IMG/VR virus record: IMGVR_UViG_3300036770_005214
Span: 1 to 64,000 of that record
DNA length: 64,000 bases
Strand: one strand, 5' to 3'
Source of the DNA: a virus
Of the stretch, positions 17,974-24,384 are shown piece by piece. Within the stretch, counting starts at the first letter, position 1; every line of letters starts with the position of its first letter. Under the pieces are notes generated by a model. The model was not told the origin of the DNA and did no database searches. It saw only the letters and a program-made list of their open reading frames with translations. The translations under genes were made by a program, and so were the position numbers.

Positions 17974-18227
17974 GGCTGACCTCCTACGGGCTGCGACCGC
18001 GACCGCGACCACGACAACGACCACAACCGCGACCCTGGCCCTGACCACGACCCCGACCCCGACCACGACCCCGACCGCGACCGCGACCGCAACCGCAACC
18101 CCAACCACGACCGCGACCCCGACCGCGACCCCGACCACGACCACGACCACGGCCACGACCACGACCATGACCGCGGCCCCGACCACGACCGCGACCGCGG
18201 CGTCGCCCCCGCAAGTAGCGCCACCAC
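17970..18227 (-). CDS. Ser-X (SR/SW/SG) repeat micro-ORF 1 (85 aa)
   Basis: GTG overlaps the upstream TAG. Encoded by degenerate hexamer repeats (NCGACC on the plus strand). Confidence 0.55.
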   Translation of the reverse strand: MVALLAGATPRSRSWSGPRSWSWSWPWSWSWSGSRSGSRSWLGLRLRSRSRSGSWSGSGSWSGPGSRLWSLSWSRSRSQPVGGQP

Positions 18228-18496: not shown

Positions 18497-18538
18497 GGCT
18501 GGCTCCTTGTTGGTGAGAGTGATCATGGGGGTAGGGGG

Positions 18539-18754
18539 TTAGCGCGACAGGCCGTAGACGCGGTGGCCGTCTTGCCAGCGGATCTTGCTGGCCTCACGGT
18601 CCGTCAGCACGCGGACCGGCAGGGATCCGACCGCGGGGTGCTGGTCGCGGATCTCCTGGGATCGGGCGCTGGCCCACTCCTCCCCTTCCGTGCGAGTCTT
18701 GACGCGGCACCAGTCGTGATGGGTGGAGCCGTGGATACCGACGATGGCGAGCAT
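18539..18754 (-). CDS. Small hypothetical protein
   Basis: AGGAG RBS before ATG 18754. Confidence 0.55.
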   Translation of the reverse strand: MLAIVGIHGSTHHDWCRVKTRTEGEEWASARSQEIRDQHPAVGSLPVRVLTDREASKIRWQDGHRVYGLSR

Positions 18755-18789
18755 GAGATCTCCTGCGAGAGGTGTGTTGCGCTGACTGA

Positions 18790-19041
18790 CTAGTACGATT
18801 CGACGATGTTCTGGTGGCAAAGGCCCTTCCCGCCCCGCTGGATATAGGCCGTACCGAGGTTCGAGTATTGGGCGACGTAGATCCGGTGCGTCTTGCTCCC
18901 CACCCGCACCACCCAGGGGGTCGGGATCTTCCCGCCGTAGCCGGACGCGGTGTAGGAGAGGCCTTTTTCGTGCCACCACAAGGGACGGTAGGTGGCGGAG
19001 AGGGACTGCCCCTCGATCTGAACCTGACGGGTGGTGGACAC
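18790..19041 (-). CDS. Small phage protein (TASGYGxKIPT motif)
   Basis: AGGAGG RBS, GTG 19041. First gene after promoter-repeat copy 3. Confidence 0.65.
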   Translation of the reverse strand: MSTTRQVQIEGQSLSATYRPLWWHEKGLSYTASGYGGKIPTPWVVRVGSKTHRIYVAQYSNLGTAYIQRGGKGLCHQNIVESY

Positions 19042-19067
19042 GGGGACCTCCTGGGGGTTGCCGGCTC

Positions 19068-19147
19068 GGCATCTTCGCCGCCGGTGACTCACTGGTATCT
19101 CGGTCTCCCCGCACCGTCAACCATAAAGGGGCAGATACCGTGAAAGG
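19068..19147 (-). promoter_or_regulatory. Early promoter plus leader hairpin, repeat copy 3 (divergent)
   Basis: TTGACG (19120-19115), 17-bp spacer, TACCAG (19097-19092). The hairpin is kept with a different loop. Confidence 0.7.
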
Positions 19148-19513
19148 CTAGGTTTGACCGTCAATCCCCCTGGCCGGCTCGGCGCCTTGGGGGACGCTGG
19201 GCGGGGGTCCTCCAGGGGGCGCCCTCACGGGGGCGGGGCCAGCCTTGAAGGGGGCATGGGGGGTAAGGGTCGCCAGGGCTTCCAGGATGGGAAGGTGGCA
19301 GCGGGTACAAGCCCCGACCCCCTTGGGGGCTCCGACGGCGGAGATCATCCGAATCTCCCCCACCTCGACCCCTTGGGCCTCGCCGCACCGAACACACCGC
19401 GGGGCTCCCAAGCGGGTGCGCCACTGGTGAGGCGTGGTCCCCTGCGCGAGCGCGTAGGCGAGGCGTTGGTCCCACATGGGCAGGGGAGTTCGCCGGACGT
19501 AACGGACGGACAC
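19148..19513 (-). CDS. Hypothetical Zn-finger-like protein
   Basis: CVRC and CTRC pairs, AGGAGG RBS and its own promoter TTGCGC-17-TACCGG. Confidence 0.5.
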   Translation of the reverse strand: MSVRYVRRTPLPMWDQRLAYALAQGTTPHQWRTRLGAPRCVRCGEAQGVEVGEIRMISAVGAPKGVGACTRCHLPILEALATLTPHAPFKAGPAPVRAPPGGPPPSVPQGAEPARGIDGQT

Positions 19514-19573
19514 GGGGGCACCTCCTGCCTACCGGTAGCCCGGTGGGCTCTAGTGCGCAACCCCCTGGCCCCC

Positions 19574-19602
19574 TTGACACGCGAGGGCCGCTCGACTACA
19601 AC
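19574..19602 (+). promoter_or_regulatory. Sigma70-like promoter of the candidate ncRNA
   Basis: TTGACA (19574-79), 17-bp spacer, TACAAC (19597-602). No RBS-led ORF follows. Confidence 0.7.
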
Positions 19603-19608
19603 AGGGAG

Positions 19609-20198
19609 GTCGGAGGGCCCGGAAGGCCCCGAGACGAGACCGGGCTAGGTAGCCGCATCGGGTGAACCCGCTGAAAGGCGCCTAGCAGGCTTTGACATTC
19701 AGGAGCACTTGTCCGCTAGAAGTAAGCCGTCAGTATCTGTTGTCAGACGGATGCCAGTCTGCAATCGGCTCTGGGGCCGTAGGCATCACCAACGAACACG
19801 ACTACGAACACAACTACAAACTAGGTCAGAGAAGGCGGAAGAAACTGGAATCCAAGTGCTCGGGATGAAAGGGGAAGGCTAGAGAGTCAATCTGCAACTC
19901 AACGTGAAAGCAGCGCGCAGAGTCGCCACAAGACCGAGGCCAAGGTCGACCACCAACACACGAACATCACTACACCAAGAACCAGACCGCGGCCGAAAAA
20001 CACGACTACGAACACGACTACGAACACAACCAAGACGAAGCGCAACGTCGACACGAAGCTCCCACGGCAGGGCCGGTGGATGTGAGCAACGAGAAGCAGT
20101 ATCCGAGGATAGTACCCGATTAGTTCCAAACTGAAGGTCAGGGGAGGCGCATACCTAGACGCGGCCCAAACAGGGTCTAGGGGCTCTCACATTTTTTT
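19609..20198 (+). ncRNA. Candidate large structured non-coding RNA (about 590 nt), family unknown
   Basis: Own promoter, pairing between the 5' and 3' ends, nested internal stems, A/C-rich repeat loops and a terminal T7 run. Lower GC than the flanking genes and no credible ORF. Confidence 0.6.
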
Positions 20199-20390
20199 GC
20201 CTCACCGGAAAACCGATGGGGACGCTGCGGCGGCGACGTCGTTAGCGCGGGGAAACTCGCGAGCGTTCTACGGGGGTCCTGGGGCGGATCGAATCGGAAG
20301 CGTTCAGGGGCGTTTCTTGGGGTGTAAAGCTCTGTCTCGAAATGTGCAACTTTCTGCATACTCGACGTGGGGCTCCATAACCCAACGCCA

Positions 20391-20490
20391 ACTAACATAA
20401 AGAGAAGAAATATATGCTTATTCCTTATACTATTACTTGCAGCTTAGAAGTGACCTTAAGAAAGTGACCTACTTGGTTTGCTTCCTAGCG
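20391..20490. other. AT-rich island, putative replication origin
   Basis: Most AT-rich stretch in the window. AAGTGACCT direct repeat at 20448 and 20462. Lies at the strand switch upstream of the replication genes. Confidence 0.45.
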
Positions 20491-20636
20491 CCCGCGCGCG
20501 ACTATTAGGTCGACCTCCGGGGCGCAAGTAAATGTAACAACTTTCCCTAGCTGCGATCGCACGGTCTTTACATCTCCTTGACACTTGGGAACGCGCTTGA
20601 CCCCCAGGGCTACATGCGCTAAATACGCTGCGGAAG

Positions 20637-22829
20637 GTGAACCGGATGCTTCGCGACTTCTCCCGCGACGTCACTACAGGACTGCCGCGTGCAGCGCGTC
20701 AGTTCTACCAAGCGGTGAGTTCCGCCACGCGCGGTTTCGACCTTGAACAACTGCTCGGCGTGCGTTGGTCTGACATTCGGCTCCTGGGGCTGTCTCACTT
20801 TGCGGACGTCAGAGGCATCCGCGGCCCGGTGAAGCTCCTCCCCGAGTGCGCCACGGACCTGGAGCGGTGGTCGCGGGTCGCGTTGGACCCTCTCGGTCGC
20901 CTCGTCCCGGTCGAGCGGCCTCCACGCGCCTACGTCTTCGGGCTCCCGGGCACAGAGGAGCCCATGCCCCGCTGGTTGCTCAACTGGCTGCTCCACGAGG
21001 TCCGGTTCCCAGGCGTCATCGACCACCGGCGCATCCTCAGCGCCCTGTCCTCGACGCTCATGTGGCATCCGACGGTCACCGCCGCGGGGCTCCAGTACGA
21101 GGCCTTCGTGGGCGCCTACGGGGGCACGACGCCCGTGCCTCCCGCCTTCGAGGAGTACCTACGCGAGATGCCCTTCCTGGCGCCGAAGGACCGGATCCGC
21201 GTCTACCGCATCCGCTCGTGGGCCCGGGAGTTCGGCCCGGTCGCGCTGCCGCCCACCGACCCGATTGTCTACTCGTGGTCGTTCGGGCGCAGCCACCAGG
21301 AGTCCCAGGTCATCGCGCTGCGGGAGATCTGGACGGGCTGGCGAGCCTACATGCAGCGCCGGTACAACATCGCCATCCCCGCGCTGCCCGGCTGGCCCTC
21401 CAACGTGATCGAGGCGTACCGGACCCTCGGGCAGCCCGACAAGTGGACCGAGAAGCTGCTATTCGACCCCTCGCCGGCCGCGGAGACGCTGCGGGGCTGG
21501 GCGAGCGCCGACGGGCGGGTGACCCTGCGCATGGGCATGACCACACTCCCCCGCTACGCCGGCTGCGCCAGTCGGGCGGTCAACTTCCGGGAGCGGATGG
21601 TCCTGCTGGAGCACCCCTGGGACTGCCAGGAGCCCTCCCGCCTCTCCGAAGGCCCGAACGGCTGGCTCGCCCTGCGCGAGCTTCCGCACTACCCCCGCGA
21701 GGCCTTGGAGTCGCGCCGCGGCCCCCTGCGCATGAGCGCCGAAGAGCCGCCGCTCCCCGTGATGGAGGACATCGAGACCGAGCCGGCCCTCGCGCCGGAC
21801 GAGTTCGAGGCGCTGCTGGAGAAGCACTGGAACCAGAACCGGCCGCCCACGCCGAAGCACCTGCCCCCGAGCGGCCTCACCGAAGAGCCCGCCGAGACCG
21901 AACACGTCGAGATCCGAGTCCCCCAGGTCATCGGCAAAGAGGTCCTGGCTTACGCCCGCGCCTGCCTCTCCGCCTACGGCACCCGCTACTACCCGCCGCC
22001 CTTCGAGGCTCCGCCCGGAAGCATCCCGGCCAACTCCAAGGCACCCCGCATCCAGCCCGACCCCCCCAAGGTCGACCGCGTGGCCCCCGACCCGTTCCAC
22101 GGGATTCGCGCAAAACAGCCCCAGGAAGACGTCGCGCAGCCCTACCCCTGGTCCGACCAGCCCCCCGCTACTCGGAAGCCTAAGAAAGGCAAACAGGGGC
22201 CTTCCGCGAAGCCTCCGAATAACCAAGCTACAAAGCCTACCGAACCGATCAAGCTCAAGCAGCCCCCCGGAAAACCCTCGATCGAACTCGACACCATCGA
22301 ACCCGACCACACACCCGCACCCGAGCCCGCACCCGAGCCTCCCCCCGAGCCCGAGACCACCCCCGAGACCACCCCCGATCCCGAAGCCAAGTCGGGCGTT
22401 TCCCACCTGCTACCGGAAGTGTTCGACTCCGAGGAACGCGAAGACGTCCGCGGTGTTGCTCTCGATCCGGTCGCGGACCCCGACAGCTACAAGTCGACAG
22501 AATGGCCAGAAGCTCCCAAGGTCAGTGCTCGCGATGCGGTGCGCGATCGCTGGGTTCGGGAGTCCTGGCTGTGGGCGTTCGGTCGGAAGCCCGGCGTCCC
22601 CAACCCCTATGACCTTGAAGCCGAAGAGTGGCCGGAGACCTATCCGCGCTTCCGCAACGGCTTCCGCGTCCCGCCGGACTGGCTGGGGCGGCTCTCCCTT
22701 CGCTGGCGTCAGTTTGGCCTGTTCACGGAGGAGGACGAGGAGATCCCCGGCCTCCGTGAGTACGCCATGCTGATCGATCCATGGCGAAAAGAGGCGGTCG
22801 AGGAGTGGGATCGCGAGTCCGACCGCTGA
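20637..22829 (+). CDS. Large hypothetical protein (730 aa) with Pro/Glu-rich linker
   Basis: Long ORF with promoter TTGACC-17-TAAATA (20597-20625). No recognisable catalytic motif. Confidence 0.7.
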   Translation: MNRMLRDFSRDVTTGLPRAARQFYQAVSSATRGFDLEQLLGVRWSDIRLLGLSHFADVRGIRGPVKLLPECATDLERWSRVALDPLGRLVPVERPPRAYVFGLPGTEEPMPRWLLNWLLHEVRFPGVIDHRRILSALSSTLMWHPTVTAAGLQYEAFVGAYGGTTPVPPAFEEYLREMPFLAPKDRIRVYRIRSWAREFGPVALPPTDPIVYSWSFGRSHQESQVIALREIWTGWRAYMQRRYNIAIPALPGWPSNVIEAYRTLGQPDKWTEKLLFDPSPAAETLRGWASADGRVTLRMGMTTLPRYAGCASRAVNFRERMVLLEHPWDCQEPSRLSEGPNGWLALRELPHYPREALESRRGPLRMSAEEPPLPVMEDIETEPALAPDEFEALLEKHWNQNRPPTPKHLPPSGLTEEPAETEHVEIRVPQVIGKEVLAYARACLSAYGTRYYPPPFEAPPGSIPANSKAPRIQPDPPKVDRVAPDPFHGIRAKQPQEDVAQPYPWSDQPPATRKPKKGKQGPSAKPPNNQATKPTEPIKLKQPPGKPSIELDTIEPDHTPAPEPAPEPPPEPETTPETTPDPEAKSGVSHLLPEVFDSEEREDVRGVALDPVADPDSYKSTEWPEAPKVSARDAVRDRWVRESWLWAFGRKPGVPNPYDLEAEEWPETYPRFRNGFRVPPDWLGRLSLRWRQFGLFTEEDEEIPGLREYAMLIDPWRKEAVEEWDRESDR

Positions 22830-22902: not shown

Positions 22903-24384
22903 ATGACTGACTCCTTCTCCCCTGACGGGGTAGTATACCGTCGGGACGACCCCTATCGCCCCAACCCCACCTCGATGCTGTGGAACATCGTCCCTCCCGA
23001 GGGCGTGCTTTCACCCCCTGACGTAGAGCCTGCCGTCCGAGATATGCTGCCCTCTTCGGGCTCCATGAGAGGCTTTGTCGAGTGGTCGCACATGACCTCC
23101 GATGCGCCCTCGATCTACGCCCTGGCCGGCTGGCTGACCGCTGTCAGCACGGCGCTGCCCCTCGACGTGAAGGTGATGGGCCCCGGTGGCGTCCCGGTCC
23201 GGCCCAACCTGTTCACGATGATCACTGGCCCTGCGGGTAACGGGCGCAAGACGTTCACGATCAACCGTCTTCGCTCCTACATGCACGCCAAGTTCGCCGG
23301 CCGCATCCTCCCCAACCCCGGATCGACGGCGGGTCTGGCGCTGGCGCTCGTCGAGCTTGAGTCGCTGTTCCCCGGCATCATCATCGACTCCGACCTCTCC
23401 CGCTTCCTGCAAGCCTCGCAGGGGTTCGGCTACCTCGCCAACCTCAAGCAAGCCTTGAACACGGCCTTCGACGCGGAGCCCATCTCCGATAAGATCCGCA
23501 AAGAGGACGTCCGGGTCACCACCTACAGCCTCTCCTTCCTCGCCGGCGTCAACCGCGAGCAGCTTGAGCAGTTCGCTGACCCGCTCGACTTCACCGGCGG
23601 CTTCCTGTCCCGCTGGCTGATGATCGACGCGACCCGCGCCCGCTACCTGCCGCCGACCGGAACCGGTCTGTCCAACGACACCATCGCCCGCGGTGAAGCC
23701 TACTTCACCGAAGAGCTTGGGAAGCGTCAGATGGTCCCGCCGGGGATCTACACGTTCTCGCGAGACGCCGGCAAGCTGGCTGACCTGTGGTCGCAGCGGA
23801 CGGAGGCGTATCAGACGCACCTCGTGACCCAGTACGGGCGCCTCGCCGAGCGGTATCGGTCGCTGTACGGTCGCGTGCCGATGCTGCTCGTGCGCCTCGC
23901 CACCCTGTATGCGGTCGACCGTTGGACGGACGCCCCGATGGTCCGCCGCATGATCGAGGTCGAGGACGTCACGCGAGCCATCTCGCTGCTCTCCTACCAC
24001 CTCTACTCCGCCCACGGCATCTACGACTTTGTGGAGCCGAACCGCGACATGCGCGACCGCCGGAAGATTCTGGAGGTCATCCCGTTCTGGGCTCCGACCG
24101 CTCCGGGCGTGACCGAGGGCGAGATCTGCCGGGTCGCTCGGATGCTGCGCCGTCAGACCGCCCCCATCCTGGAGACCCTGGTGCTGGAAGGCACGGTGTT
24201 GAAGAACGTCGGCACCGGCAACGGCTACCTGTACGCCCGCACGACCACCACCAAGGCGATCCACGCCCCGAAGCGCGACGAGATGATCGGCCCCGTGGTC
24301 CGCCCGAGCAAGATGGTCAAGAAGCCCTCCGTCTGGGAGCTTCACATGGATGGCACCGTCACCGACGGACCGGATGGCGACTGA
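22903..24384 (+). CDS. DUF3987/YfjI-like ATPase (primase-associated helicase-like)
   Basis: RPNLFTMITGPAGNGRKT, PGSTAGL, GGFLSRWL and a winged-helix-like C-terminus. Confidence 0.7.
   Translation: MTDSFSPDGVVYRRDDPYRPNPTSMLWNIVPPEGVLSPPDVEPAVRDMLPSSGSMRGFVEWSHMTSDAPSIYALAGWLTAVSTALPLDVKVMGPGGVPVRPNLFTMITGPAGNGRKTFTINRLRSYMHAKFAGRILPNPGSTAGLALALVELESLFPGIIIDSDLSRFLQASQGFGYLANLKQALNTAFDAEPISDKIRKEDVRVTTYSLSFLAGVNREQLEQFADPLDFTGGFLSRWLMIDATRARYLPPTGTGLSNDTIARGEAYFTEELGKRQMVPPGIYTFSRDAGKLADLWSQRTEAYQTHLVTQYGRLAERYRSLYGRVPMLLVRLATLYAVDRWTDAPMVRRMIEVEDVTRAISLLSYHLYSAHGIYDFVEPNRDMRDRRKILEVIPFWAPTAPGVTEGEICRVARMLRRQTAPILETLVLEGTVLKNVGTGNGYLYARTTTTKAIHAPKRDEMIGPVVRPSKMVKKPSVWELHMDGTVTDGPDGD

Follow-up and report, generated by a model that had tools for sequence, protein, structure and literature searches.

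Our analysis of a 64,000-nt stretch of phage DNA identifies a candidate noncoding RNA gene of ~590 nt, with a predicted start that coincides with the left boundary of a conserved block of intergenic sequence. We consider it quite probable that this is a real, selected, noncoding transcription unit. With rather less assurance, at somewhat better than even confidence, we read it as a discrete phage ncRNA gene that works by displaying A/C-rich tracts and binding G/U-rich RNA. This function is one that we infer, and pairing with G/U-rich RNA stands only slightly ahead of the capture of a protein by the same tracts.

The candidate transcription unit and its surroundings

The window (the whole stretch of DNA that was analyzed) comprises the first 64 kb of an IMG/VR virus record of 108,122 bp that is ~92% complete and has a GC content of ~68%. 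The RNA region sits within a 1,123-bp intergenic gap (19514-20636) with divergent gene blocks on either side. The leftward block consists of tail-fiber and small accessory genes, and the rightward block contains a 730-aa ORFan (P0001), helicases, and a Pol I-type polymerase. The GC content of the gap is ~0.55, versus ~0.70 around it, and A greatly exceeds T on the plus strand, with an AT skew of up to 0.62. The features of the region, several of them predicted, are as follows.

17985-18214, minus strand: strain-specific (GGTCGN)n hexamer repeat; its minus-strand RNA would be the genome's best partner for the A/C tracts
19148-19513, minus strand: left neighbor, 121 aa, with a GGAGG ribosome-binding site, pointing away from the RNA gene
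19574-19602, plus strand: host-type promoter, TTGACA-17-TACAAC, alternatively TTGACAC-14-ACTACAAC
19609-20198, plus strand: candidate ncRNA, ~590 nt (A 30%, G 29%, C 27%, U 14%)
19609-19732, plus strand: most conserved 5' domain, with 1 difference in 124 nt versus 9-14% in the flanks; contains the hairpin 19644-19686
19703-19861, plus strand: domain closed by a predicted 9-bp helix (pair probability 1.0); holds A/C tract 1
19786-19821, plus strand: A/C tract 1, with 2.5 copies of the 12-mer ACGAACACGACT and 10 consecutive A-N-N triplets
19949-19978, plus strand: A/C tract 2, degenerate (unpaired probability 0.98)
19996-20040, plus strand: A/C tract 3, with 2.4 exact copies of the 12-mer and 15 consecutive A-N-N triplets
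20141-20198, plus strand: 3' end, an imperfect hairpin or the 3' strand of a closing helix (20173-88), then ACA and U7 (20192-98)
20637-22829, plus strand: right neighbor P0001, the 730-aa ORFan, GC3 ~0.95
22903-24384, plus strand: DUF3987 helicase, the next gene after P0001

An earlier note on this DNA, made from the sequence alone, had described a near-consensus promoter and a terminal run of seven T residues, and both are present where it placed them: TTGACA at 19574-79, a 17-nt spacer, and TACAAC at 19597-602, with the T7 run at 20192-98. The promoter is the sole site of the form TTGAC.-N15-19-TA.A[AT][CT] in the 108-kb record; a consensus promoter scan left it unlisted because that scan demands T as the last base of the -10 element. 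The predicted start at 19609 lies 7 nt past the -10 hexamer, and the terminator-like hairpin at the other end is weak, with 6 pairs in the consensus scan. Two features, the promoter and the U7 run, provide the whole of the putative assignment to the plus strand. In its alternative reading, TTGACAC-14-ACTACAAC, the promoter fits the Caulobacter RpoD consensus TTGaCgS / GCtANAWC (PMC8144410). The fit is only a lead towards a possible alphaproteobacterial host, and tblastn searches of cultured phages with P0001, the helicase, and PolA returned no close relative, and hence none close enough to confirm such a host.

The DNA that follows the promoter does not resemble coding sequence. GC3 periodicity, which marks every neighboring gene, is gone between 19600 and 20600, and each of the six frames contains 9-20 stops with all three stop codons represented, so that every frame would stay closed if a stop codon were reassigned. 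The public protein collection contains none of the small ORFs of the RNA stretch, whereas it does contain the neighboring 121-aa gene, in a cluster with 4 public members. Every candidate frame would be shifted by the indels seen in relatives (1 nt lost at 19818, 4 nt gained after 19957). Coding readings of the stretch were rejected on the basis of the periodicity, the stops, and the public proteins, and these observations, together with the indels, agree with the earlier note, which had seen no RBS-led ORF here.

Comparison with relatives outlines the element most clearly on its left side. The stretch was found in sequencing runs from 13 studies, mostly lake and freshwater. A contig from run X18 is 86% alike over 19353-19450, is unalignable over 19451-19608 (of the same length but diverged), and from 19609 on shows the single difference across 19609-19732; in a contig from run X19 the fit begins exactly at 19609, and TACAAC is retained in the otherwise diverged sequence upstream. 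Divergence inside the RNA is 0.8% over 19609-19732, ~3.5-4% centrally, and 3.5-6% towards the 3' end, while outside it the same relatives differ by 7.8% and 12.8% in intergenic DNA beyond 20269 and by 9-14% in the flanking genes. These sequence comparisons show the predicted RNA to be under much stronger constraint than its flanks, with conservation extending to about 20250-20340, past the U7 run. The sole readable homolog is L002, a 4,917-bp JGI contig from a 97% strain and the one locus returned by the metagenome-contig scan; the diverged relatives were seen as difference counts only. Over 19239-20342, L002 differs from the window only by a 4-nt insertion and a C>T change at 19975, both in the middle A/C tract, and it is identical to the window in all predicted helices. 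All five known variable sites have an unpaired probability of 0.74-1.0, versus a mean of 0.49, and their position is weak evidence in favor of the predicted loops.

Wider searches returned little. No match to the RNA stretch was found by blastn among phages and plasmids, three exact 20-21-mers were absent from viral contigs, and scans of viral contigs with the helicase and PolA proteins gave nothing, or relatives at just 21-23% identity. Among genome contigs, the sole hit was a 20-mer, attributable to chance, on a Paenibacillus contig. As judged from sequence, the putative element is known from one phage lineage.

Contigs matching the element were also found in an RNA library. In the freshwater metatranscriptome X20, three contigs from a relative 94-96% alike tile 19623-20141, and no contigs fall on 18500-19600 or 20200-21499, which serve as silent controls over 2.4 kb of flanking sequence (1.1 kb left, 1.3 kb right). 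As these data come from one study, with contigs at a depth of 3-7 that carry no strand, ends, or level, they count as a hint, short of proof, that the RNA is probably present in nature. The small word shares in the RNA-labeled runs X18 and X19 are probably DNA, and uncovered parts in these two runs were not counted as evidence. The self-contained noncoding unit of ~590 nt on the plus strand that the earlier note had envisaged is thus upheld by the conservation boundary at the start site, the RNA contigs, the frameshifting indels, and an empty Rfam search (described below). The properties found here are those of an independent ncRNA gene: a promoter, a weak terminator, noncoding sequence, a conserved unit, and RNA-library contigs.

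Several features of the surrounding DNA were recorded alongside. P0001 belongs to no recognizable family and has no Pfam or PDB match, and a homologous-protein search returned a single public relative, 97% identical. At its N terminus is a stretch reminiscent of the first catalytic-Arg motif in tyrosine recombinases, and its tail is long and Pro-rich. A reading of the neighborhood as a tyrosine recombinase with attP was rejected, given the weak language-model lead for P0001 (0.90), the lack of a Pfam or PDB match, and a fold model with a pLDDT of 34. A true tyrosine integrase is encoded elsewhere, beyond the window at 75494-76501 (Phage_integrase, E 8.6e-12), and the phage is therefore probably temperate; the attachment site of this integrase could point to the host. 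Just 5' of the 730-aa gene, TTGACC-16-TAAATA at 20597-20624 resembles a host-type promoter but is weaker than the first; with this second site, the gene would have a start of its own. To the left of the gap, a 288-bp segment (18755-19043) with an ORF at 18790-19092 is absent from L002 and from a contig of run X2, and reads as an accessory-gene indel between strains. A hypervariable patch at 20343-20405 sets the window apart from L002 by 19 differences over 63 nt; ~1.1 kb to its left is nearly identical (two differences) and the right side is moderately diverged. The run X18 relative also diverges at this patch. In an AT-rich (~41% GC) part of the gap, two exact copies of AAGTGACCT lie 14 bp apart (20448-20470); the pair may be an operator or an origin-related site, and the count of this motif is not significant alone (10 matches versus 7.3 expected at 1 mismatch).

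Folding and the A/C-rich tracts

The earlier note had pictured a highly structured RNA, with its two ends paired in nested order and further nested stems inside. The predicted minimum free energy does not agree with this picture, as -178.5 kcal/mol is indistinguishable from the -178.2 +/- 7.4 kcal/mol of dinucleotide shuffles (z -0.04), an outcome that the earlier note itself had listed as refuting its proposal; the minus strand folds with a z of +0.47 against its shuffles. Windows of 120 nt inside the RNA range from z -1.7 to +1.8, and those at the center (+1.2 to +1.8) are less foldable than shuffles. Most of the named helices have a near-zero ensemble probability, and the nested set is not supported; only the 9-bp stem is predicted with certainty. 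This stem, formed by GAGCACTTG and CAAGTGCTC at 19703-11/19853-61, is present as described, but a perfect 9-bp inverted repeat is expected ~0.7 times per 590 nt by plain arithmetic and is not significant alone. At the ends, the complementary segments are indeed present, but the pairings 19625-35/20175-85 and 19642-45/20164-67 have an ensemble probability of ~0. The segments CTAGGTA and TACCTAG are likewise found, but their pairing is not favored (probability 0.24) and loses to a local hairpin, 19644-50/19680-86, with a probability of 0.75. The helices of the 5' domain hairpin (19644-19686) are predicted with p 0.68-0.85. A shifted closing helix, composed of 19613-20/20181-88 and 19624-29/20173-78 and thus joining 19613-29 to 20173-88, has a predicted p of ~0.7; among controls, 6% of shuffles and 14% of random windows from this G/C-rich genome form duplexes at least as strong as its -26.5.

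The repeat loops of the earlier note fared better. The analysis confirmed two arrays of the 12-mer (19792-19821 and 19999-20031) and, near 19958, a degenerate copy; the 12-mer gives 18 matches at up to 2 mismatches versus 4.6 expected. The three tracts are 83-90% A+C with 2-3 U each, tract 3 being composed of 23 A, 13 C, 7 G, and 2 T. As A and C do not pair, the tracts cannot fold on themselves, and the unpaired A/C loops, which are also where relatives vary, can be regarded as real. Tract 1 has an unpaired probability of 0.80 and carries the 1-nt deletion at 19818 in one relative; in tract 2, the 4 extra bases of relatives after 19957 restore an A-N-N run of 10 triplets. The 12-mer itself is four A-N-N triplets, and the runs number 10 and 15 triplets in the window and 10, 10, and 15 in L002. 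Shuffles reach at least 10 A-N-N triplets in 0.2% of cases, and (ANN)x6 occurs 15 times versus 0.4 expected. The poor predicted folding of the central windows fits selection for open tracts. Elsewhere in the record, beyond the window, A-N-N triplets of the ACG-AAG type form runs of 24 and 13 at the 3' end of a gene for 614 aa (101607-101738, minus strand); this low-complexity coding sequence is unrelated to the RNA.

Candidate partners and competing explanations

In the mechanism that we propose, the housekeeping host RNA polymerase would transcribe 19609-20198 from the genome's only near-consensus host-type promoter, and transcription would stop where a G/C-rich helix gives way to U7. Three tracts of 30-45 nt, ~85% A+C and U-poor, would be held by the conserved 5' domain and a few helices and would act as accessible antisense platforms for G/U-rich RNAs with complementarity to ACGAACACGACU. 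The obvious partner here would be a (GGUCGN)n mRNA of this strain, transcribed leftward 1.5 kb away, and in strains that lack the hexamer repeat it would be a host RNA or another phage RNA.

Partners were sought by an ungapped pairing scan with a 24-nt tract across both strands of the 108 kb. The sole non-self signal is the minus-strand repeat RNA at 18028-18172, which forms 20-21 of 24 pairs versus at most 18 elsewhere. Predicted tract-repeat duplexes have energies of -38.6 and -50.7 kcal/mol, versus backgrounds of -17.5 +/- 5.6 and -20.9 +/- 7.2 kcal/mol, respectively. The hexamer repeat is absent from L002, where quite different genes are in place, and because L002 keeps the RNA almost unchanged the repeat cannot be its conserved target. 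The likeness between repeat and tract may reflect a shared low-complexity unit of the ACGAMY type. The repeat also has a coding aspect: an 89-aa gene (18496-18227, minus strand) ends at TAG, and 12 bases on, in the same frame, a 76-codon GGT-CGN run begins that reads poly(Gly-Arg), with the variable base of the hexamer at the third position of the Arg codon. The L002 ortholog of this gene continues into an unrelated C-terminal domain of ~110 aa. The 89-aa product, a supposed "Sm-like" neighbor, has no Pfam match and no detectable Hfq/Sm family membership, and its fold model is all-beta and poor (pLDDT 52).

Sequestration of a protein by the A/C tracts is an unlikely alternative to RNA pairing, but one with observations in its favor. 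The tracts would then be decoys for a triplet-reading single-strand RNA-binding protein, such as an Hfq-like ring, Rho, or a phage protein. The recurrence of A in every third position across 10-15 triplets recalls the distal-face motif of Hfq and would suit such a protein, as would the presence of three separate tracts on one scaffold and their retention in L002, the strain that lacks the complementary repeat. However, known signatures of protein sponges are missing from the RNA. Neither (ARN)x4 nor AANAANAA, which would mark a CrcZ-type sponge of the Hfq distal face, occurs even once, the canonical (ARN)n motif being absent because the triplets mostly have C in second place. For a CsrA/RsmA sponge, GGA occurs 11 times versus 14.6 expected and ANGGA once versus 4.4 expected; YC is not enriched, and the 89-aa neighbor has no detected Hfq/Sm family membership and a poor fold model.

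The remaining explanations concern the unit as a whole. It is improbable, in our estimation, that the 19574 promoter drives the rightward early or replication operon, with 19609-20198 as a cis-acting regulatory leader and U7 as an attenuator. The orientation shared with the 730-aa gene and the helicase, the weak terminator, and the run of conservation to about 20250-20340 would be consistent with a leader, but the RNA-library contigs end at 20141 with none downstream, and ~440 nt of poorly conserved, partly hypervariable DNA, with its own promoter-like site at 20597-20624, precede the 730-aa gene. More improbable still is a DNA element in which the 12-mers are iterons or protein-binding sites of an origin or control region and the transcript is incidental. 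The region does lie at the switch in transcription direction and at the cumulative GC-skew maximum, its direct repeats are clustered, and the AT-rich 20380-20460 stretch with the two AAGTGACCT copies is followed by a helicase module. Against this, the repeats lie outside the most conserved part (19609-19732), the left edge of conservation is precisely the predicted start site, the contigs from the RNA library correspond to the unit, and the repeats tolerate indels of 1 and 4 nt; a 12-bp period without spacers is also unusual for iterons. Compared with an iteron-type origin, an RNA better accounts for the pattern of conservation and the RNA contigs. Finally, we give very little credence to the region being a functionless, recently exchanged mosaic segment, in which low divergence reflects recent transfer and the repeats arose by slippage. 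Phage genomes are mosaic, and the near-identity of the window and L002 over 19239-20342 reaches past the RNA on both sides, but three further relatives from different studies show a conserved core, diverged flanks, and a left boundary at 19609. The preferred reading remains an RNA gene that displays its A/C tracts to G/U-rich RNA.

Relation to known RNA families

A comparison of the candidate with known RNAs shows some likenesses and no family match. In line with the novelty that the earlier note had suspected, Rfam 15 gave 0 matches in the window at gathering thresholds, and none to 19609-20198 even at E up to 10; the families covered include ROOL, GOLLD, OLE, HEARO, tmRNA, RNase P, 6S, group I/II introns, CsrB/RsmZ, and CrcZ. 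ARAGORN found no tRNA or tmRNA genes in the 64 kb. A search of the 108-kb record for reverse transcriptase (RVT_1) gave no match while its positive controls were detected, which weakens a reading as template RNA of the retron, DRT, or DGR type, template being one of the roles, with guide and protein sponge, that the earlier note had put forward. ToxI-like antitoxins consist of tandem repeats, each about 34-45 nt, that lie upstream of a toxin gene; a type III antitoxin was rejected here, as each array has only 2.4-2.5 copies of a 12-nt unit and no toxin family is present in the neighbors.

The earlier note had likened the RNA to the ROOL/OLE class, a comparison that holds for size but not for an ornate fold or a family match. 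Like ROOL, GOLLD, and OLE, the candidate is ~600 nt, phage-borne, and noncoding; unlike them, it has no covariance-model match or thermodynamic support for an ornate fold, is not beside tRNA genes, and is known from one narrow lineage. A second parallel is with AgvB, which we take to be a C/A-rich target mimic among the phage- and prophage-encoded anti-sRNA or sponge RNAs. Sponges of this type are also phage-encoded, with an exposed C/A-rich single strand able to pair with G/U-rich RNA, but the candidate is about ten times longer and carries three repeated tracts on a conserved scaffold. With CrcZ- and CsrB-type sponges it shares a length of several hundred nt and multiple copies of a short single-stranded motif, and differs in its lack of AANAANAA, its under-representation of GGA, and the empty Rfam result. 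ColE1 RNA II is similar in length (about 550-600 nt) and in being transcribed towards an AT-rich region beside replication genes, and the phage of the candidate encodes a Pol I-type polymerase. In contrast to RNA II, the candidate ends at U7, ~200 nt short of the AT-rich patch. With no known RNA family matched, the candidate is a new family within the phage-borne large ncRNAs.

To our knowledge, few large phage ncRNAs are known, and none has a settled function. The present candidate offers an unusually clean gene boundary, strong purifying selection, and a first hint of expression in nature. Its design is simple and testable, consisting of three A/C tracts that are unable to self-fold, and as the phage was found in 13 studies, enough natural variants for an analysis of covariation should exist. 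If the tracts turned out to be neither a decoy nor an antisense platform, the case would still be a useful warning that G/C-rich sequence yields nested complementary segments by chance. We suggest only tentatively, and with some doubt, that the RNA could be the first of a new class of large regulatory RNAs in phages, a conserved scaffold with three self-inert A/C tracts of three-base period that would be made from a single host-type promoter and would capture G/U-rich host or phage RNAs, or a triplet-reading protein, early in infection. If the tracts do act as a decoy or an antisense platform, they would represent a new way for a phage to reprogram the RNA metabolism of its host.
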